Positions 31,682-43,154 of a DNA stretch of 64,000 bases are shown in pieces (position 1 is the first letter of the stretch; every line of letters starts with the position of its first letter). This stretch comes from Escherichia coli (GTDB taxonomy: Bacteria; Pseudomonadota; Gammaproteobacteria; Enterobacterales; Enterobacteriaceae): the NCBI RefSeq assembly GCF_003019035.1, contig NZ_CP027448.1. The stretch is one strand, 5' to 3'. The notes beneath the pieces were generated by a model that had not been told where the DNA came from, ran no database searches, and saw only the letters and a list, made by a program, of their open reading frames with translations. A program made the translations under genes and the position numbers.

Positions 31682-32539
31682 TCAGGGAGAAGCTGTGGCC
31701 AGCCGGCTGTAATTACGGTTACGTGACAGAATCATGCGCTCTTTCACACGACGCTCCACTTCGCGTTTTACCGCCTCACGATTGGCAGTGAAGCGCCCTT
31801 CCGAGATTTCACGCGTCAGCTGCCGTTTCACCAGGGTGACGATATCCTGACGTTCCCTGTTCGCATCACGACGCGCACGGGCACGCTTTATTCCACGGGA
31901 CTTAAGCTCTGTCTGGTAACTGCGGAAATGCTCACGCACAAAACGCCAGGCTTTCGCTATCAGTTCATCCATACCCAGGGTATCCAGTCCCTGCTTTTTG
32001 CGCTGTCTGTTTTCCCATTCAACACGACTGCGGCGCGCAGCAACCACTGCATCCTCAGACACATCAAGGGCGGCAAATAGCGCCGGTGTGAACGTGATAT
32101 TGGTCGGAATGTAGCACCCGATAAGCGGATCATATTCCGTCTGGTAGGTAATCAGTCCCAGCTCTGCAAGGAACGTCAAGGCTCGGGTGGCCCGGGTGAT
32201 GGAGAGTTTTCCGGCAGCAGACTCCGTCGCCAGTCCGCACTCAATGGCCAGCGTAGTGATGGAGCACTGGACGCGGTTGGCCAGCGGGTCATAGTGAAAA
32301 CACAGCCCCTGCAGCAGCGCATCAATAGCCCGGCGACGCAGTACCGGTGGCATGCGCCGACGCAGTCCCTTCGAACGGGCATGTGCCACATGAATGGCGA
32401 AATCAAAACGGGAGGTGAAGTCCACCGCCTTTTCCATCAGTTTTTCGCAGAACTTCAGCGTTCCGGCACCTTCACGGGGTGTGAATACCGGATTCGGGTT
32501 CTTTACCTGGCGGTAATACGTTTGTTGAAGATCAGTCAC
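31682..32539 (-). CDS. repA1: RepA1 replication initiator (IncFII/RepFIIA)
   Basis: Protein matches R100/R1 RepA1 as recalled ([39 protein letters not shown]...[14 protein letters not shown]); GTG start at 32539 overlaps the tap stop. The ORF track extends to 32551. Confidence 0.9.
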
Positions 32540-32623: not shown

Positions 32624-32708
32624 ATAGCTGAATTGTTGGCTATACGGTTTTTAGATGGCCCCGGTAATCTTTCATGTCGCCAAACTTGAAGAAGATTATC
32701 GGGGTTTT
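32624..32708 (+). ncRNA. copA: CopA antisense RNA (copy-number control), approximate ends
   Basis: Antisense to the repA1 leader upstream of tap; ends in a 14-bp stem (CCCCGGUAAUCUUU...GAAGAUUAUCGGGG) plus UUUU. Confidence 0.55.
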
Positions 32709-32838
32709 CACTTTTCTGGCTCCTGTAAATCCACATCAGAACCGGTTCCCTGCCACCTTATGGCGTGGCCAGCCACAAAATTCCTTAAACGATCAGCAAT
32801 CTATCACTCACGCCTGAGATAAGCAATAATGTGAATAT

Positions 32839-33096
32839 TCACATTATTGCTCTGCGTTTCAGCTCTGATTCAATCAGTTTTTCAAGCATCTGCGCCTGGG
32901 TAATACCTTCCTCATCTGCCAGTTCACTCAGCCTGTCTTTTAAACGGGCCTGGATAACCGCATGAAAAGCCTTATGAGTGTTGCTTCTGCGAGCCAGAGA
33001 AGCCCTTTGCCTCTCTCTGGCCGGAACAGGGTTACCTTTCCGGTATGCACGCTTGTTACCTGATGAGGAAGTCACTGCATTTTCTGTCTGCGACAT
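32839..33096 (-). CDS. copB: CopB (RepA2) repressor of the repA1 promoter
   Basis: 85-aa protein MSQTENAV... matching R100 RepA2 in sequence and position. Confidence 0.85.
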
Positions 33097-33263: not shown

Positions 33264-33339
33264 GGAAACGCCGGGAGCGGAGAAAACTTGCTTTTTCCCG
33301 TTTCCGGGGTTGGACAACTGAGCAACGCGAAGGCGTCAG
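33264..33339. repeat. Conserved ~75-bp hairpin-containing element, copy 1
   Basis: GGAAACGCCGGG...hairpin...TTTCCGGGGTTGGACAACTGAGCAACGCGAAGGCGTCAG; second copy at 46086-46158. Confidence 0.7.
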
Positions 33340-33926
33340 CTACGATGTTCAGGTGGCTGCTGATCAGCCCCTGTTGTATTCAGCCATTCGCCGGTCATCT
33401 GCAGCAGTTTTCTGGCATCGTGGCTTCTGAGCAACGGTATACCAGCCTGCCTCATAACCTCTTCCAGAAGAATATCCCGGCGTCTGCGTTCCGGTCGTAA
33501 ATGGCTGGCATCATCCAGCTCTACTGCTGCAACAATACTGAACGAACGCCGCTCAACGATAACCACATCAACATGCCACTGGGACACCATCCTGAATAAC
33601 TGCCACCACTGACGTGATCGTGGCCGGATATTCCCGTTCAGCTGGACGATATCAGCGCCCCGTACCTGCGGGCACAGATACCACCGCTTCATATCCACAA
33701 TCCTGAACAACCCTTTCATGAAACTGACCTCTCTTTCTGTCAGCAACGTTTTCTGACGCTGCCAGTATTCACCGCTGACCAGTATTCGCTCAGCTTCACT
33801 GGGGCGTATGCCTGCTGCATGTAACCGTATCAGTGCGGGAGGACAGTTTTTACTCCTCCGGAATATTATCCGGACAGACAAAACAGCTATAATAATAACG
33901 ACTACAATGAAAATAATTAAATTCAT
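33336..33926 (-). CDS. DUF2726-like membrane-anchored protein (putative nuclease fold)
   Basis: N-terminal TM (MNLIIFIVVVIIIAVLSV) then a domain with blocks ...FRIVDMKRWYLCPQV... and ...HVDVVIVERRSFSIVAAVELDD... that I recall as DUF2726-like. Confidence 0.55.
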   Translation of the reverse strand: MNLIIFIVVVIIIAVLSVRIIFRRSKNCPPALIRLHAAGIRPSEAERILVSGEYWQRQKTLLTEREVSFMKGLFRIVDMKRWYLCPQVRGADIVQLNGNIRPRSRQWWQLFRMVSQWHVDVVIVERRSFSIVAAVELDDASHLRPERRRRDILLEEVMRQAGIPLLRSHDARKLLQMTGEWLNTTGADQQPPEHRS

Positions 33927-34077
33927 TATTATGTCCTTAATTACATATGAGTCCAGATGAACGAATGTAGTTTTCACCCGAAGTAAGACTCGCAATATTT
34001 ATCCCATGAATTACCTGAACGTTATCAGAAATACGACAAACCAGATCCGCAACAGATAATTCTGTTGTGATAAGGGG

Positions 34078-34704
34078 TCACCGCCTCGTTAACCAGACAA
34101 TTTTATCAGCCTGGATTTTAATTACCCCACGACGAACCAACTCACTACGTATACTAACAGCCCGTTCTTTATGCCATTCTCCTCGCATATGCGATTTTAA
34201 ATAATTATTAAACCCCTCCACTGACACCGGTAAATTCCGCACATCACTTCCGGATGCCTGCTGCATTCTGTTAGCCCACCGGATAATAACATCCCCCTCA
34301 GGGACAATCAGGTGAGATACCGGCAAATGACTCTCAGCGTGCTCTGGCGCAATACGTTCGCAACGAAAACCCCGTTTTTGCAGAGTATGAATTATTCCAT
34401 CATAGCCTTTATCGTTTGAAATAATATGCCAGGTGTTGTTTCCGGCACTGCAGCACGTCATCCTGCCGAGCTCCATAACAAGGTGAAAGTCAACATTATT
34501 CTTCGAAATGTTATCTATCTGTCTGATACTCACTCTGATATTATCTGGCCAGGTATCAGCAGGTAAGACCACTGTTTGCTGAAGAGGACCAGCAAATAAA
34601 ATCAAATCGGTATAATCAGCAAGCGATATATTTCTCAGATTGCAACAGTTTTCATAATCAATGAGCGCAATGCGTAATGCTTCATTTCTCATCATGTTTT
34701 CCAT
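34078..34704 (-). CDS. NYN/PIN-like domain protein (putative RNase fold)
   Basis: N-terminal ...RIALIDYENC... and later ...WHIISNDKGYDGIIH... match the acidic-residue arrangement of NYN-type domains; the ORF may start further upstream (track: 34740). Confidence 0.45.
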   Translation of the reverse strand: MENMMRNEALRIALIDYENCCNLRNISLADYTDLILFAGPLQQTVVLPADTWPDNIRVSIRQIDNISKNNVDFHLVMELGRMTCCSAGNNTWHIISNDKGYDGIIHTLQKRGFRCERIAPEHAESHLPVSHLIVPEGDVIIRWANRMQQASGSDVRNLPVSVEGFNNYLKSHMRGEWHKERAVSIRSELVRRGVIKIQADKIVWLTRR

Positions 34705-34997
34705 TATATATTCACCATAATAAAACAGAATAAACTGCAAACCCGACGCAGTGTATCTACCGGTCTGGTTAAGTTTTCATTATCGGAATATAAAATATTG
34801 TCTGCCGCCAGTCAGGCAGCCCGGAGTTCCGTGAGTGATATAACAAATCAATAAACCACCACTTAATTCATAAACATCCTTGTGTCACTATAAGCCGGTC
34901 GGTTATCCGGTGCGCCATGAGTAATCCGTTCTGAAGAACGGAAATACAGAGTGCCAGGTTGTCTCTCATAATACAAAAGCAAATTTCATGCATCATT

Positions 34998-35428: not shown

Positions 35429-35456
35429 GCCTCCTCTCTCTGAGGGAGGCTTTTTT
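35429..35456 (+). terminator. Rho-independent terminator (plus strand), abutting the finO stop
   Basis: GCCUCC-ucucucugag-GGAGGC followed by UUUUUU; the U-tract exists only on the plus strand. Confidence 0.5.
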
Positions 35457-36016
35457 CATTTCTCATCAAGCACGGCCTGAAGTTCTGCCTTTATCCGGTT
35501 CTGGCGGCGGATTTTATCCAGACGCGTTGCCGCATACGCTTCCTCCTCCTGAGAAATATGCTCCGTCACATACCCTTCCGTGTCATACCGGCAGGCACCG
35601 GCTTTCATGGCACACAGATAGCTTTCTGAACGGGTGATGGCCTTCAGCGCCCTGCGCAGTTTTTTATGCGAGAGTGGGATATTCCGCTGCGCCACGTCTT
35701 CCATTAACACGTCCCGGATACCACAGGCCAGAAGCCGGGGTGTGTCACCGTCAAACAATCCCGGCCACCAGGGCTTCAGGGTGTTCACGGCCTCATCCAG
35801 CGTGGGCAGGTTCAGATAAATGGACAGCGCCTGTCTGGCCTGCGCTTTTTTTGCCGCCAGCTCCGCTTCCCGGGCTGCTTTCTCGGCCAGCTTCTGCTTT
35901 TTCACCTTCCATTTTGGTGGCGTGGTGACATTGATGATGGTTTTCCGGCTGCGGACAGGCGTCTCTCCTTCCGTTTTCCGCTTCAGTGTCAGTACAGGTC
36001 GTTTTTGCTCTGCCAT
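35456..36016 (-). CDS. finO: FinO fertility-inhibition RNA chaperone
   Basis: [52 protein letters not shown]... matches F/R100 FinO; located after traX as in F. Confidence 0.9.
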
Positions 36017-36118: not shown

Positions 36119-36978
36119 TTAAAGATATTGTTTAAACCATTGTGTCTGCACAGCTACTACACGTTCAAAAAACGCGCCCTCATAAATATCATAATGGCAT
36201 GCATCAGCTTCCTCGTATAATTCCTTAGTACCAGAAGCAACAGCATCATATAATGCTCTTCCCTGTTCCGGTGGATTAACGCTATCCTGGCCGGCAATAA
36301 CAACCAAAACTGGGCACTGGACGCTGGCTGCACTCTCTGCCGGTTTATATTGCAACGTTTCCATGACCGTAAGGAAAGGTATTTTTATATCCATTTCGGG
36401 ATGCCGGGCTTTGATTTTCTCGAAGAATACCTTCGATTCATTATCACTTAGTACCCGTGTAACCCCCACAAACATCTCTTTCCCGGTGTTTTTCTTCTTC
36501 TCTGCCATTTTATTCAGCGTGGATAGAAAAGACGCTCTCTCCGATTCATTCATCTCTCCGGTAACCAGAACATCACCGTCAGCAAAAGCCAGCTGGCTGA
36601 CAATACATTTTACGCGTTGGTCCTGCGCAGCTGCACTGAAGACATGCCCCCTCCCAGCGATGTTCCCCATAACCCAATACGCTGATTATCAATACATTCC
36701 TGCTTTTCTGCCCAATTGATAACTGAAATAATATCTTCGGTCTGCATTGCAGGAACCAGACGCCCTCGTTCTCCATCACTCTCACCGAATCCTCGATAAT
36801 CAAAAGTAATCGTTGCGAATCCTGCTTCTGTGAAGGCATTCGCAAAGCAAGGGAGCAGAACATTCCTGATACCGCAAAACCCATGGCATAAGATAATCAA
36901 CGGATGTTTTATATTTCCTTCAGGAACACGAAATGTCAGGGCAATACCTTCAGAGAGTTTGTGATCCGTAATTTTCAT
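36119..36978 (-). pseudogene. Alpha/beta-hydrolase-fold protein, frameshifted
   Basis: Two overlapping ORFs (36610-36978 and 36119-36670) together form one hydrolase; nucleophile-elbow-like GLWGTSLGG. Confidence 0.6.
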
Positions 36979-37802: not shown

Positions 37803-40800
37803 TCAGTCTCCGCCCAGGGTTTTCTCTTTCTGCAGGTCACGAACCATATCCCGCTCCATCTGCTGCAGACGCTCCTGCAGCAGATTTTCCCGGGCAACCT
37901 CCCGGACCGCTTCCCGCTCCCGTTGTGATTCACGCAGCACACTATCCGGCAGCGCGGCTTCCCGTTCAGTTATGGCAGCCCGGTCACGCTCCTGCCCGGC
38001 AATTTCCCTGACAGCCAGCTCTGTTTTGCCATCCGGCAGGTCAGGTTTGTTCTCTGCCATTTTACGGACAATTTCATCTGCGCGGCGTTCCGTTTCACGG
38101 CGGATGGCCTCTTCAGCCTGCCTCTGTGCCAGCACCTCTGCCGTGACCGGTTCGCCATTTCCGGCTCCCGGCTGGACGCTGTTGTCCGGGATATCCCCCC
38201 ACACGCGGCCACCGGTTATGGCACCGGGATTCCACGGACGGCCTTCACCGGCGATTCTTACCACCACACCACTGTCAGGATTATCACGGGCAATCCGGAC
38301 ACCATCCTGCATATTATCAGCCAGCAGGCTTTCTCCGTTACGGCTGCCCTGCAGGGCCACAAACTGTGCATCTTCACTGCCCTTCACCCGGCCTTCACCA
38401 CTGAATCCCCGCAGCCCGTTTCCGTCATCCGTGGTCAGCGGGTTCAGCCAGATACCGGCAGACTTGCCGTTACGGTCAAAAGCCGGCAGTGCCACATACG
38501 GCTGTGGGTATTTGCGCCCCGGAGCAATAAACCGTGCAGGACTGTCTCCCCCGGCCAGCCCCGCCTGACGAAGAACGGCTCGGCCTGCCGCCACGTCCCG
38601 CAGCTCCCGCGCCGTACTGAACAGCCGCTCTGCATTCATGACCTCCCGGTCCGATTTCGGCTCAAACACATCGTGGGCAGTTCCTTTCTGTTCGGCATTG
38701 TTAATGGCATCCGTCCAGCCCTGACGGTTATCGGTGTACACCTGCACATGCTGCTTCATACGCGACAGGGCCACGTAGGCTGACTCAAAGCCGGCCATCT
38801 GTTTCCGGCTGCCTTCCGTGCCTTCAAGCGCAATGGCAAAGGTTTCACTTGCCCCCTGCGCACCGTGGGCGGTGATGGCATAGGCCAGGTCAATATGTTG
38901 CTCTGCCCGCTCCTGACCGGGGCGAATCACCCGGGTCTGCTGTCCGCCCGACAGCGTGACACTGTCACCGGAAACCGCTGTCACCGTCCAGACGCTGTTG
39001 GCCACATAGCCGCGCTCCCGGTCACTCTTCGTGAAGCGCATCCGGTCACCGGTCCCCACCCGGATGGTGTCCGGGGTGTACAGTGTGACACCTTCAGCCA
39101 CCGCCTCCCGGGGCGAAATCAGCCGCGTGTTACCTTCCGCATCCTGCAGGGTTATCAGCCCGTCACCCTTACTGATACCGGCAATCCGGTGATACACATT
39201 ATCCACCAGGACAAGTGCGTCCCGATGTGTCTCCCAGGTGGAGAGACGACGCAACTCCCCGTCGCGTATATTCGCTGTGTTCAGGACAGGCACCATGACC
39301 TGCTCTTTCCCCAGCTCACCGGCCTTTTCCCGTGCATCATGAATCATGCTGTTCAGTACGCGCCGGTCCTCATTCAGGTGCGTGACAATAAGCGTCTGCT
39401 CCCGTGCTTCCGGCGTCCTGCCGGTATAGTCGCGGACAATGGCTTCATACAGTGTCATGGGGACATCCGGAAAAGCCTCGCCGTTCTGCATCGCCTTCTG
39501 CTGCGCTTCTGCCAGTTTCGCTTCCTGGCTGTGACTGAACTCCGTCACAGAGTGCTCCGGTACCCATGCGCCCTCCTGACGTGGCACCTGAGACGGTTTC
39601 ACACTCTCAAGCCCGGACAATGCCCTTTCCACATCCCGGTTAATCAGGCTGTATACCGCCTCCCGCAGTTCCGGCGTCTGACGCACAATCTCCTTCATGA
39701 TGGCCACATCGGCAGCGCTGCGCGTCTGCTGGAGACGGAAAGGCTGACCGGGCGCGATGGCCTGCAGCTGGTCCGTGTCACCGCTGGCCACTGCACGACC
39801 ACCACCGGCCGCAATCAGGGCATATGCCCGTGCCATGTCGGTATTGCCCACCATTGAGCTCTCATCGAGCAGGAACAGCGTGTTGCTGAAATCCGGCGTT
39901 TCTCCGCTGCGCAGCTGCAGCTGCGTGCCATGCAGAAAGGACGCCAGTGTCTGTGCATCCACGCCGGCGCTGCGCATCTCCCCGACCGCACGGTGCGTGG
40001 GCCCCAGCCCCACGACACGGGGACGCTCACTCTCCGGCAGCATGTTCACGGCTGACATCACCGCCCGGAACTGTGTGGTCTTACCCACACCGGCATAGCC
40101 CTGCACCACCGTGAAACGGTCGGACGTTTCCAGTATCATGCGGGTGGCGGCACGCTGTCCTGATGTCAGACTCTCCATGACTCCGCCAGGGACTCTCTCC
40201 ATCAGCGGCGTGACCGCCTCCTTACCTTCGAGAATATGGCGAAGAATGCTCTTTTCTGCCTCATACGACGCACGGGAAACCAGCAGGCCTGTGCCATAGC
40301 CTTTTGCCACATCCACATACAGTAAATCACCGCGTTTTATCTGCGCATTGATTTCCCCTCCCAGTTCAGTAAAACTGGTTCCTTCTGCAGCAAACGACTT
40401 CGCCTCTGTCAGCAGGTCCACCATGCTGAAGGCCAGGTTTTTACTTTCCAGCACAGGAAGGGCCAGATGAATGGCCTGCTGTGCCGGCGTGTGAAGCCCG
40501 GCTTTCTGCAGACTGATAGCGGTTTCCAGCAATGTCTCACCGGCACGCGCCTTTATCTGCTCAGAAACCACCGTAAAGGAGGGATGGCGGGCAAGGTTTT
40601 CCGCCGTACGGGTTTCATCCAGCGAGGAATACAGCCGGACATCACGACCGCTGCGGGCCAGACCGTTCAGGGTGGCGTTGTCCATTGCCATCTGTGTGAC
40701 GGAGGCAAAAACCTTCGCACTGTCGCTGACGGAATGCCCGGGCGTTTCCACCCAGCCGTTCTCCAGCTTCAGTGCCGTGAACGGTGAATCGCTCACAGGC

Positions 40801-43073
40801 AGGGAGGCCGGTTCAGCCCGCCCCGGCACAACAACCGTCATCGAATCTTCACTGACGGATGCCACCTGCAGGCGGTCACCGCCGGAGACGCGGAGTCCGG
40901 GAATTTTCCCTGTCACCCTCAGACGCTCGCCGTCTGCCACCGGCATTTTTTCCGGCCGGAACAGCGACCAGCTGCTGTCCAGGGAGGAAATACGCACCAC
41001 CTGCGTTTCGCCCTGCGCATCCCGCAGGGTCAGGCTGTGACTCTGCGCCGTCACCCGATCGATAACATAGAGGTCATGACTGCGTGTCTCCGGGTTCCAC
41101 TGCTCCATCACCATCCCCGGACGGTACATATCCCGCAGATAACGGCTCCGGCTGTCCAGCCAGACCGGTGACAGAGCGGTCATGGTCACCTCCGGGTGTC
41201 CGAGCACGCCCTGTGTTTTCAGCTCACTGCGAACGGCCTGTGTCAGTATGGCCTGTTCCCGTACCCCGCTGACCTGTGCCACGCTCTCTTCTCCGGCTTT
41301 CACGCTGGCCGCAAAATCTCCGGCCAGCCGGGCATAGCGGACATTACGGTCCGGTTCACTGATGATGGTGGCCGGTCGCTGTTCTCCCCCCTGCCAGCGA
41401 TATGTGTTCACCCCGGCATCTTTCATGGCCATCAGTGCACTGCCTGTACCGGTTCGCTGCCCGCTGTCGGTTATCAGGACCTGTACGTTATGACGTGCGG
41501 CACCGTCCAGCAGGGTTAACGTCTCTTTCAGGGAGAGTTTTTCGCCCTGGTCAACGATAACAGTACTGCCCAGCGTGAAGGCCATGCCTTCCAGCAGCTG
41601 ACGACGTCCGGTTATCAGCTCACCGGACAGCCGTTCATCCTGCTTCAGGTTCATCTGCGAGCGACGGTCAGCAGCGATAATCTGCACTTCCCGCCCCTGC
41701 TCCCGGGCCATCATGACCAGTTCAGCCACCCGCTCACGCTGCCCGGCTGCACCGCCCTGCCCGGACACAATGGCCAGCGACGGACGGTCCTGTGCCAGAA
41801 CACTGACGGCATCGCTGTAGCCGGCCGTCCGGGGGACACTTTTCTCCGGATGTACGGTCACCCGGTTCTGTTTCATGATATCGCGACTGAGTGCCCGGAC
41901 TGACAGTTCATCGAGCACATGAATCCCGGACGTGAACAGCCCCTTCTCACGGTCAAGGGGGATGAGTTGCTCACGGCTGATGGCCTCATCGATACCGGCG
42001 CGTGCCCGTTCAATCACACCATTTTCCGGCGGCAGTATACCGACCGTTCTGGCCAGCACGTCCGTGTACGTAAACTGCACTTTTCGTTCACTTAATCCGG
42101 CAATCGCCTGTGTCACCGCCTGCTGCACATCCGGCCCCTCCTGTGAAACAGCCCCGGGCGCCTGCGTGCGGGTCTCCGCACGCTGATCCGCCGCGTCACG
42201 ATATGCCCGGATGTCGAACCCGGTTTCCTTCAGCGTCTGCATCCATTCAGCCATTCTGACTTCAGGATCGACGTGCTGTTTGGATTTTCGCGTATCCAGT
42301 GCCGCCACATCCCGGGATTTCAGCGAGGCGTCCTCCCCGACGGCCTCCCGGATAGTCTGCGAGCGTCCAGAAAAGGCCTCCACCGGTATGCCCAGCATTT
42401 CCCACATACCGTGCTGACCCACCACTTCGGTTTCATAGCCCAGCGCCTCAACCTGCTCTTTCAGTTTTTCCCGGTAGAGCCTGCCAAAGGCAATCTGATT
42501 AGCGTACACATTCTCAATGAACCCCGTTTTCCCCACTTTGTCACTGCTCAGTGTCTTCCATTCGCCGTTATGCTGCGTGACATTAGCCACCACCGCATGC
42601 GTGTGTAACTGTGGTTCCTGATCGCGACTGGTGTCGTGGTTAAACAGTGCCATCACCAGATTACCGGTCAGCACCGTTTCTGACTGTCCGTCCGTCATCA
42701 CCCGTGTGGAGGCCAGCGCCTCCACCTGACGGACAGCAAAATCCACGGCCTGGTTATGTGCTTCAATAAGACGTTTGTCCCCCCCGAGCATGGCCATCAT
42801 GGAGACACTTTTGGGAGCGGAAAAGGTCAGGTCGTAGCCGGGACGATGCCTGTTACGGCCATCCTGCATGCGGCTTAAATCCGCCCCGTCTGGCAACCTG
42901 CCCTCCAGAAGGCGGGTAAAGACATCCTTATCGACACTGCCCTGCAGCCCCAGTTGTTCAGCCCCCTGGCCGGCCCAGCGTTCTCCCATGCTGCCCAGCA
43001 CATAGTAATTATCCTTGTCGGTATAATAGTTCCCGGCACTTCCGGCCGATCTGACCTGCGCAATACTCATCAT
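37803..43073 (-). CDS. traI: TraI relaxase/helicase
   Basis: About 1756-aa protein; N-terminal relaxase (MMSIAQVRSAGSAGNYYTDKDNYY...) plus helicase domains; the track start at 43094 adds 7 residues. Confidence 0.95.
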   Translation of the reverse strand: MMSIAQVRSAGSAGNYYTDKDNYYVLGSMGERWAGQGAEQLGLQGSVDKDVFTRLLEGRLPDGADLSRMQDGRNRHRPGYDLTFSAPKSVSMMAMLGGDKRLIEAHNQAVDFAVRQVEALASTRVMTDGQSETVLTGNLVMALFNHDTSRDQEPQLHTHAVVANVTQHNGEWKTLSSDKVGKTGFIENVYANQIAFGRLYREKLKEQVEALGYETEVVGQHGMWEMLGIPVEAFSGRSQTIREAVGEDASLKSRDVAALDTRKSKQHVDPEVRMAEWMQTLKETGFDIRAYRDAADQRAETRTQAPGAVSQEGPDVQQAVTQAIAGLSERKVQFTYTDVLARTVGILPPENGVIERARAGIDEAISREQLIPLDREKGLFTSGIHVLDELSVRALSRDIMKQNRVTVHPEKSVPRTAGYSDAVSVLAQDRPSLAIVSGQGGAAGQRERVAELVMMAREQGREVQIIAADRRSQMNLKQDERLSGELITGRRQLLEGMAFTLGSTVIVDQGEKLSLKETLTLLDGAARHNVQVLITDSGQRTGTGSALMAMKDAGVNTYRWQGGEQRPATIISEPDRNVRYARLAGDFAASVKAGEESVAQVSGVREQAILTQAVRSELKTQGVLGHPEVTMTALSPVWLDSRSRYLRDMYRPGMVMEQWNPETRSHDLYVIDRVTAQSHSLTLRDAQGETQVVRISSLDSSWSLFRPEKMPVADGERLRVTGKIPGLRVSGGDRLQVASVSEDSMTVVVPGRAEPASLPVSDSPFTALKLENGWVETPGHSVSDSAKVFASVTQMAMDNATLNGLARSGRDVRLYSSLDETRTAENLARHPSFTVVSEQIKARAGETLLETAISLQKAGLHTPAQQAIHLALPVLESKNLAFSMVDLLTEAKSFAAEGTSFTELGGEINAQIKRGDLLYVDVAKGYGTGLLVSRASYEAEKSILRHILEGKEAVTPLMERVPGGVMESLTSGQRAATRMILETSDRFTVVQGYAGVGKTTQFRAVMSAVNMLPESERPRVVGLGPTHRAVGEMRSAGVDAQTLASFLHGTQLQLRSGETPDFSNTLFLLDESSMVGNTDMARAYALIAAGGGRAVASGDTDQLQAIAPGQPFRLQQTRSAADVAIMKEIVRQTPELREAVYSLINRDVERALSGLESVKPSQVPRQEGAWVPEHSVTEFSHSQEAKLAEAQQKAMQNGEAFPDVPMTLYEAIVRDYTGRTPEAREQTLIVTHLNEDRRVLNSMIHDAREKAGELGKEQVMVPVLNTANIRDGELRRLSTWETHRDALVLVDNVYHRIAGISKGDGLITLQDAEGNTRLISPREAVAEGVTLYTPDTIRVGTGDRMRFTKSDRERGYVANSVWTVTAVSGDSVTLSGGQQTRVIRPGQERAEQHIDLAYAITAHGAQGASETFAIALEGTEGSRKQMAGFESAYVALSRMKQHVQVYTDNRQGWTDAINNAEQKGTAHDVFEPKSDREVMNAERLFSTARELRDVAAGRAVLRQAGLAGGDSPARFIAPGRKYPQPYVALPAFDRNGKSAGIWLNPLTTDDGNGLRGFSGEGRVKGSEDAQFVALQGSRNGESLLADNMQDGVRIARDNPDSGVVVRIAGEGRPWNPGAITGGRVWGDIPDNSVQPGAGNGEPVTAEVLAQRQAEEAIRRETERRADEIVRKMAENKPDLPDGKTELAVREIAGQERDRAAITEREAALPDSVLRESQREREAVREVARENLLQERLQQMERDMVRDLQKEKTLGGD

Positions 43074-43154
43074 AAACGTATATCCCTTTGACATATCCCG
43101 GCATCAATCCCACAATGGATATACACAAGACATATCCACATAAGGAGGCAAATA

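Follow-up and report, generated by a model that had tools for sequence, protein, structure and literature searches.

Two co-oriented genes that lie between finO and copB/repA2 on an F-like (IncFII/FIC-type) plasmid of Escherichia coli (contig NZ_CP027448.1, of which a stretch of 64,000 nucleotides, henceforth the window, was analyzed) encode two distinct nuclease-like proteins. The first is a 208-residue protein combining a PIN7/NYN-like domain with a C-terminal winged helix (PIN7-WH), and the second is a 196-residue DUF2726 protein with a predicted membrane anchor (YihA, a gene name taken from the annotation of LC521836). Probably, though with appreciable room for doubt, the two belong to the F-like plasmid backbone as accessory genes independent of each other; both reside in a variable cargo interval, and each supplies a stand-alone nuclease-like protein. 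An earlier note on this DNA had presented them as a candidate two-gene system, a proposal that rests on their adjacency in one lineage. Comparison across plasmids shows that either gene sorts without regard to the other and that they mostly lie apart, and no known defence or toxin-antitoxin (TA) model fits them. Such independent comings and goings argue against a paired system.

When the two-gene segment was used as a DNA query against 72,556 plasmids it matched 4,523 plasmid records, but no more than 157 of these align over 80% or more of its length; the other records for the most part share just the 3' two-thirds of the DUF2726 gene and the spacer toward copB. At the protein level, tblastn detected PIN7 in 3,158 plasmids (2,333 from Klebsiella and 658 from Escherichia) and DUF2726 in at least 5,000 (2,706 from Escherichia), with each gene common without the other. 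R100 (L054) has the arrangement finO-ANR-SNase-hha-DUF2726-repA2 with no PIN7. F-like plasmids of Salmonella and Enterobacter likewise lack PIN7, and in them DUF2726 is accompanied by genes for ScsC/DsbA, Hha and PLD proteins. DUF2726 genes are present on IncX4 and IncI2 plasmids too. Conversely, pKP19-3138-4 (IncFII/IncFIA) displays the order finO-hyp-PIN-hyp-hok-repA2 (hyp, hypothetical gene), and the IncHI1B/FIB(K) plasmids have PIN7 beside large genes for Ig-like proteins, in both cases with no DUF2726. In other F-like plasmids that possess the two genes, one to three unrelated genes (SNase, hha and hypotheticals) usually part them, as in finO-ANR-PIN-ANR'-SNase-hha-DUF2726 of NZ_CP098221 (L003) and finO-PIN-hyp214-DUF2726-hyp102-PLD-repA2 of the pKpQIL-type plasmids. 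Hence, the conserved co-occurrence and adjacency that would typify an obligate PIN7-DUF2726 module are not observed. One further case of seemingly direct adjacency, picked up by an open reading frame (ORF) scan of a Klebsiella michiganensis plasmid (L022), is likely the pKpQIL arrangement with its intervening 214-residue gene, as the shared DUF2726 coordinates suggest.

The provenance of the junction in the window points in the same direction. Relative to NZ_CP098221 the DUF2726 gene is 93% identical and the PIN7 gene only 57%, and DNA homology to the common R100-like arrangement stops at position 33930, at the DUF2726 start codon. This contrast in allele identity, together with the break in homology, indicates that the junction is a product of recombination or deletion, with the two genes being adjacent here only for want of the SNase-hha-ANR' block, which is missing from this lineage and parts them in the L003-type relatives. 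Within NZ_CP098221 two diverged ANR-like copies (5725-5916 and 7545-7757) flank the PIN7 gene, and such paired copies could favor its gain or loss through recombination.

Against this, the two proteins might be viewed as a cooperative nuclease pair, of the sensor/effector or toxin/immunity kind, deployed in defence, exclusion or addiction. Their direct adjacency, co-orientation and 151-bp spacer in the window and the 157 plasmids would fit such a pair, as would their presence in the same interval and the same order in both the R100-like (L003-type) and the pKpQIL-like plasmids. Several observations count against treating the genes as separate. The co-occurrence counts given above are record totals accompanied by examples rather than a full presence/absence matrix. 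The two genes often share the same interval, always with PIN7 nearer finO and DUF2726 nearer repA2, and this constant order is compatible with a loose functional link. Moreover, Pasteurellaceae chromosomes encode PIN7 proteins of about 31% identity beside genes for DUF559, a member of the clan of DUF2726, and/or YhcG (DUF1016) PD-(D/E)XK nucleases (L004-L006, 6001-7164; L024, 4001-6038; L025, 2943-5933). In Glaesserella the PIN7 gene adjoins DUF559 in a small island between glyQ and glyS, in Canicola it adjoins DUF559 as well as a YhcG-type PD-(D/E)XK gene, and in Actinobacillus it adjoins the latter type. This is a second, independent co-localization of PIN7 with Vsr-like or PD-(D/E)XK nucleases, and it is chiefly for this reason that we retain the paired system as an explanation at all.

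We nevertheless consider a cooperative pair very unlikely. In Pasteurella canis and Bisgaard taxon 45 PIN7 adjoins a NUDIX gene and has no nuclease neighbor, and we read the Pasteurellaceae pattern as a whole to mean that small nuclease genes gather in variable islands and not that they are obligate partners. Among 34 diverse PIN7 loci from GTDB genomes, retrieved with a 20-sequence alignment, the neighbors are heterogeneous (including MoaA, PAS sensors and hydrolases), there is no conserved partner, and neither DUF2726 nor DUF559 is among the recurrent neighbor families. With respect to a type II TA system of the VapBC kind, no conserved small antitoxin gene was found beside PIN7; its neighbors differ in every plasmid arrangement and are heterogeneous at the 34 loci. 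Neither protein of the window is small or antitoxin-like, and the genes do not overlap as a pair. The separate ancestry of the two alleles at the window junction, as well as the frequent occurrence of each gene on its own, likewise stands against a pair. Two short contigs, one assigned to Streptomyces morookaense (L017, which also has finO) and one to a Collinsella metagenome-assembled genome (L018), carry an enterobacterial F-plasmid-type PIN7 gene of 50-53% identity and are most likely assembly contamination or mis-binning.

The 208-residue protein matches the Pfam PIN7 family (PF18475) over the full model (positions 1-103 of 103; E=5.7e-17, 62.7 bits versus a cut-off of 34). Its score against NYN (PF01936) is 18.5 bits (E=0.003), under the cut-off of 24.2; although its fold resembles NYN, it falls outside the Pfam NYN family, despite the RefSeq name 'NYN domain-containing'. 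An exhaustive HMMER search with this protein yielded 371 clusters at E<=0.001, and many of the matches listed are about 200 residues long and align over nearly the whole query. In an alignment of 58 homologs, with identities down to about 20%, D16, E18, N19, D72 and D98 are invariant, and N69, H74 and S96 are near-invariant. The AlphaFold (AF2) model, with a predicted local distance difference test score (pLDDT) of 90, is composed of two domains: a PIN/NYN fold bearing the conserved acidic active-site residues, and a C-terminal domain (residues 136-204) that in structure matches resembles the winged helices of the cullin WHB, GntR-type and MCM8 WH classes. A weak profile match to histone H1/H5 is in line with a winged helix. 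There is no membrane segment.

PIN7-WH would be a soluble, Mg2+/Mn2+-dependent NYN-type nuclease, with single-stranded RNA as its most probable substrate by analogy with NYN enzymes; by analogy with the FEN-like matches, the substrate might also be a flap or single-stranded DNA. The winged helix most likely would provide for binding or positioning of the nucleic acid. In comparison to the NYN RNases, such as MARF1 and the LabA-like VPA0982, the window protein falls under the NYN cut-off and belongs to the separate PIN7 family, and its C-terminus is a generic winged helix, not necessarily a LOTUS domain. With the VapC-type PIN toxins it shares a PIN-like domain, acidic active-site residues and a plasmid-borne gene, but it differs from them in lacking an adjacent small antitoxin gene and a conserved partner and in possessing the additional winged helix.

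YihA matches DUF2726 (PF10881) over residues 59-170 with E=2.8e-20 (72.8 bits versus a cut-off of 24.7), with a secondary Pfam match to REase MTES_1575. Its core adopts a restriction-endonuclease-like alpha/beta fold resembling the Vsr/DUF559 group, and E66, D120, E136, D138 and H142, which are invariant in 25 homologs of 51-86% identity, constitute the D...ExD...H signature of that group. In the AF2 model a helix at residues 2-26 (block pLDDT 92/88) spans the hydrophobic N-terminus and ends at a basic RRSK motif, making the membrane anchor a credible prediction. Across the same 25 homologs the hydrophobic helix is preceded by 0-1 positive charges and followed by 2-4, a pattern which by the positive-inside rule predicts an N-out/C-in orientation. 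The catalytic domain would accordingly face the cytoplasm while tethered at the inner membrane, and YihA might function as an inner-membrane-tethered Vsr/DUF559-like endonuclease that would act on DNA near the membrane. On the architecture of both proteins the earlier note was sound: the cytoplasmic protein with NYN/PIN-like conserved acidic residues is upheld by the PIN7 match, the alignment and the AF2 model, and the DUF2726-like, restriction-endonuclease-like core with a membrane anchor by the Pfam match, the AF2 fold and the N-terminal helix.

The closest relatives of YihA are the DUF2726 proteins of IncF plasmids represented by WP_000766807 (of L003 and R100): this is the same gene at the same site directly upstream of copB/repA2, coding for a protein of the same 196 residues, with 93% identity over residues 30-196. 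The window version differs in its N-terminal 30 residues, corresponding to the membrane helix, which represent a diverged allele, and in having S43 and G90 at near-invariant sites. With the Vsr/DUF559/I-Bth0305I ('EDxHD'-type) endonucleases YihA shares the minimal PD-(D/E)XK fold and the ExD...H catalytic motif, but it lacks sequence-level membership in that group, possesses a membrane anchor and an extra two-helix segment (residues 30-51), and is not in a mismatch-repair or homing context. In Steczkiewicz et al. (2012), DUF2726 appears twice, in one place alongside VSR and DUF559 and in another under an entry of its own. The SNase-like YigB/thermonuclease and the PLD-family Nuc-like protein, which occupy the same finO-to-repA2 interval and are likewise uncharacterized, have folds unrelated to those of YihA and PIN7-WH; for the latter two, the prediction places the catalytic domain of YihA in the cytoplasm, and PIN7-WH is devoid of a membrane segment.

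Comparisons with known systems placed neither protein in one. A scan of both against PADLOC-DB v2 gave no family at E<=1, a scan against NCBIfam gave no match, a PDB sequence search recovered no solved relatives of either family, and a PHROGs search with the DUF2726 protein returned only a weak match to a family with no assigned function. Literature searches on DUF2726, yihA/yigB, PIN7/PF18475, plasmid NYN proteins and nucleases of the IncF finO/repA2 region found annotations and transcript tables but no functional study, in agreement with the earlier statement that neither gene has a characterized function. Both genes are already domain-annotated in RefSeq ('DUF2726 domain-containing protein' and 'NYN/PIN domain-containing protein'), and they are uncharacterized members of known nuclease superfamilies and not a new system. 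We also considered whether yihA might correspond to tir, the determinant of transfer inhibition of RP4 that R100 shares with IncL/M plasmids and that is disrupted in pOXA-48. This identity was rejected, as a scan of 77 of the 89 kb of pCTX-M3 (IncL/M) revealed no DUF2726-like ORF, a test that assumes an intact tir in pCTX-M3 (what the papers report is its disruption in pOXA-48-type relatives). A CPBP/CAAX-protease-like gene followed by pemI-pemK is common to R100 (L054, 40609-41946) and pCTX-M3 (L055, 11-1348), and tir may be this CPBP gene.

Both genes are under purifying selection, with a ratio of nonsynonymous to synonymous substitution rates (dN/dS) of 0.12 for the PIN7 gene (versus the L003 allele) and of 0.10-0.21 for the DUF2726 gene. 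At the same time, natural cases of gene loss, namely an IS1 insertion, truncated remnants and a PIN::DUF2726 deletion chimera, are found in other plasmids; the chimera, the insertion and the many truncated copies show that both genes are dispensable. The chimera (P0036/P0037; 198 residues, nine contigs), being one protein with both PIN7 and DUF2726 matches, first looked like a domain fusion, and hence like evidence that the two functions are linked. In fact it arose by an in-frame deletion joining PIN7 residues 1-101 to DUF2726 residues 100-196, the deletion having removed ANR', SNase, hha, the N-terminal 99 residues of the DUF2726 protein and the C-terminal half of PIN7. As to the window copies, YihA has S43 and G90 (window positions 33800 and 33658) at sites that are G and V, respectively, in at least 90% of the 25 homologs, the nearest relative among them. 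Compared with NZ_CP062205, an E. coli plasmid 99.8% identical to that of the window, the DUF2726 gene has three nucleotide differences, all nonsynonymous, and the PIN7 gene is identical.

The frequent truncations, the IS1 insertion and the chimera, the two unusual residues of the window YihA and the low expression seen in one transcriptome (see below) might be taken to mean that these genes are decaying or functionless remnants carried by the backbone. This we regard as most improbable: both frames are intact and preceded by Shine-Dalgarno (SD)-like sites, all catalytic residues are invariant, dN/dS stands at 0.1-0.2, and the AF2 models are confident.

The features of the locus are collected in Table 1. 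On the minus strand the gene order is traI, traX, an alpha/beta hydrolase gene, finO, an ANR-like gene, the 208-residue gene, the 196-residue gene, copB/repA2, tap and repA1, and the Rfam match to CopA beside the two genes confirms an IncFII-type replicon. That the two genes are co-oriented and lie between finO and copB, as the earlier note had it, is confirmed by the ORF map and by the RefSeq annotation of the flanks in the 99.8%-identical plasmid. Its span of 33336-34740 requires adjustment: the ORFs are real, but this span corresponds to their maximal TTG-start versions (33336..33995 and 34078..34740), whereas the likely starts are the ATG codons at 33926 (196 residues) and 34704 (208 residues). 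An SD-like AAGGA or GGTGA is placed 8-9 nt 5' of each ATG, and both ATG starts agree with the RefSeq calls in NZ_CP062205.

Table 1. Features of the finO-to-repA1 region and its surroundings in the window
Feature	Position	Strand	Basis or remark
traI	43094..37803	-	
finO	36016..35456	-	
ANR-like small regulator gene, 69 aa	35116..35325	-	Upstream neighbor, context only; NCBIfam ANR_neg_reg, E=2e-5
PIN7/NYN-like nuclease gene, 208 aa	34078..34704	-	Pfam PIN7; RefSeq 'NYN domain-containing protein' WP_032215029
PIN/NYN-like catalytic domain, aa 11-118 (D16, E18, N19, D72, D98)	34351..34674	-	
C-terminal winged-helix domain, aa 136-204	34093..34299	-	
151-bp spacer between the 208-aa and 196-aa genes	33927..34077		Read from the sequence
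Membrane-anchored (predicted) DUF2726 gene, yihA in R100-type annotations, 196 aa	33336..33926	-	Pfam DUF2726; R100 homology
N-terminal transmembrane helix of YihA (predicted), aa 2-26	33849..33923	-	AF2 helix and hydrophobicity
Vsr-like PD-(D/E)XK core of YihA, aa 59-170 (E66, D120, E136-L-D138-D-A-S-H142)	33417..33752	-	
copB/repA2 replication regulator	32839..33096	-	Downstream neighbor, context; RefSeq annotation of near-identical plasmid
CopA antisense RNA	32624-32713	+	Rfam RF00042, 97.8 bits; between copB and tap/repA1
tap and repA1	32539..31682	-	

The ANR-like gene scores 24.3 bits with ANR_neg_reg, under the cut-off of 32; the annotations of L003 and R100 call its homolog an ANR family regulator. 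Further upstream, between traX and finO, the gene for the alpha/beta hydrolase (36119-36978) is broken into two ORFs (36978..36610 and 36670..36119), because one base pair present in NZ_CP062205, whose 286-residue gene is intact, is deleted at 36647; this reflects either a pseudogene or a sequencing error. A promoter and terminator scan of the two-gene region gave a promoter count no higher than in shuffled sequences, and within the 151-bp spacer neither a promoter nor a terminator reached significance, nor did a convincing operon boundary emerge. The stretch from yihA to copB likewise yielded no terminator-like site on the minus strand. The transcript level of yihA in a published transcriptome of pBIC1a is low, this being the sole transcript value found for either gene. 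Since both genes follow the transfer operon at its distal end and point the same way as the tra genes, they may be co-expressed with it.

This location raises the alternative that the genes serve the DNA and RNA transactions of the plasmid itself. On this account the part of YihA would be the processing of membrane-proximal plasmid DNA in the course of conjugative transfer or establishment, or else yihA transcription would have an input into the control of copB/repA, and PIN7-WH would turn over tra RNAs or RNAs of the FinP/CopA type alongside the RNA chaperone FinO. Placement at the distal tra end immediately upstream of copB and the low-level yihA transcription in pBIC1a are compatible with such a role, as is the lack of a minus-strand terminator-like site before copB; furthermore, even on plasmids of only about 50% identity DUF2726 keeps its place beside repA2 or at most a few genes away. 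However, many transfer-proficient F-like plasmids lack one of the genes or have truncated copies, PIN7 homologs occur on chromosomes without FinO or tra genes, and DUF2726 genes reside on IncX4 and IncI2 plasmids. We therefore regard a role in the plasmid's own transactions as unlikely.

Returning to the interpretation as two separate accessory genes, the interval in which they lie is itself informative. Across the plasmids compared (L003, L011-L016, L051-L054), the finO-to-repA2 interval has varying mixes of four unrelated nuclease folds, namely SNase/thermonuclease, PLD, DUF2726 and PIN7, and it also carries Hha, ANR/PerC, hok and ScsC/DsbA-like genes, which marks it as a hotspot of changing cargo in F-like plasmids, rich in nucleases. 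Each of PIN7-WH and YihA would work alone in such a setting, and their role might be to compete against phages or other mobile DNA, and not to take part in core replication or transfer; we propose this conflict role because the interval gathers four unrelated nuclease folds along with Hha/ANR regulators and Dsb/Scs oxidoreductases. A bolder version, which we deem rather improbable, would have the interval be a conflict island that swaps single-gene nuclease effectors (SNase, PLD, DUF2726 and PIN7-WH), with PIN7-WH and YihA being new stand-alone anti-phage or anti-plasmid effectors acting in exclusion or fertility inhibition. Under this version the recurrence of Vsr-like or PD-(D/E)XK genes around PIN7 in Pasteurellaceae would follow from the same logic of defence islands, if not from some loose synergy in function.

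The main outcome of this analysis is the correction of an over-reading, in that adjacency in one lineage does not make a system. In Enterobacteriaceae, resistance and virulence genes travel chiefly on IncF plasmids. At least 5,000 sequenced plasmids have a yihA-type DUF2726 gene and about 3,100 a PIN7 gene, yet our literature search gave no functional study of them; the exact active-site residues and the predicted topology supplied here lend themselves to simple experiments. If these nucleases indeed act on incoming phages or rival plasmids, they would shape which plasmids coexist and spread.

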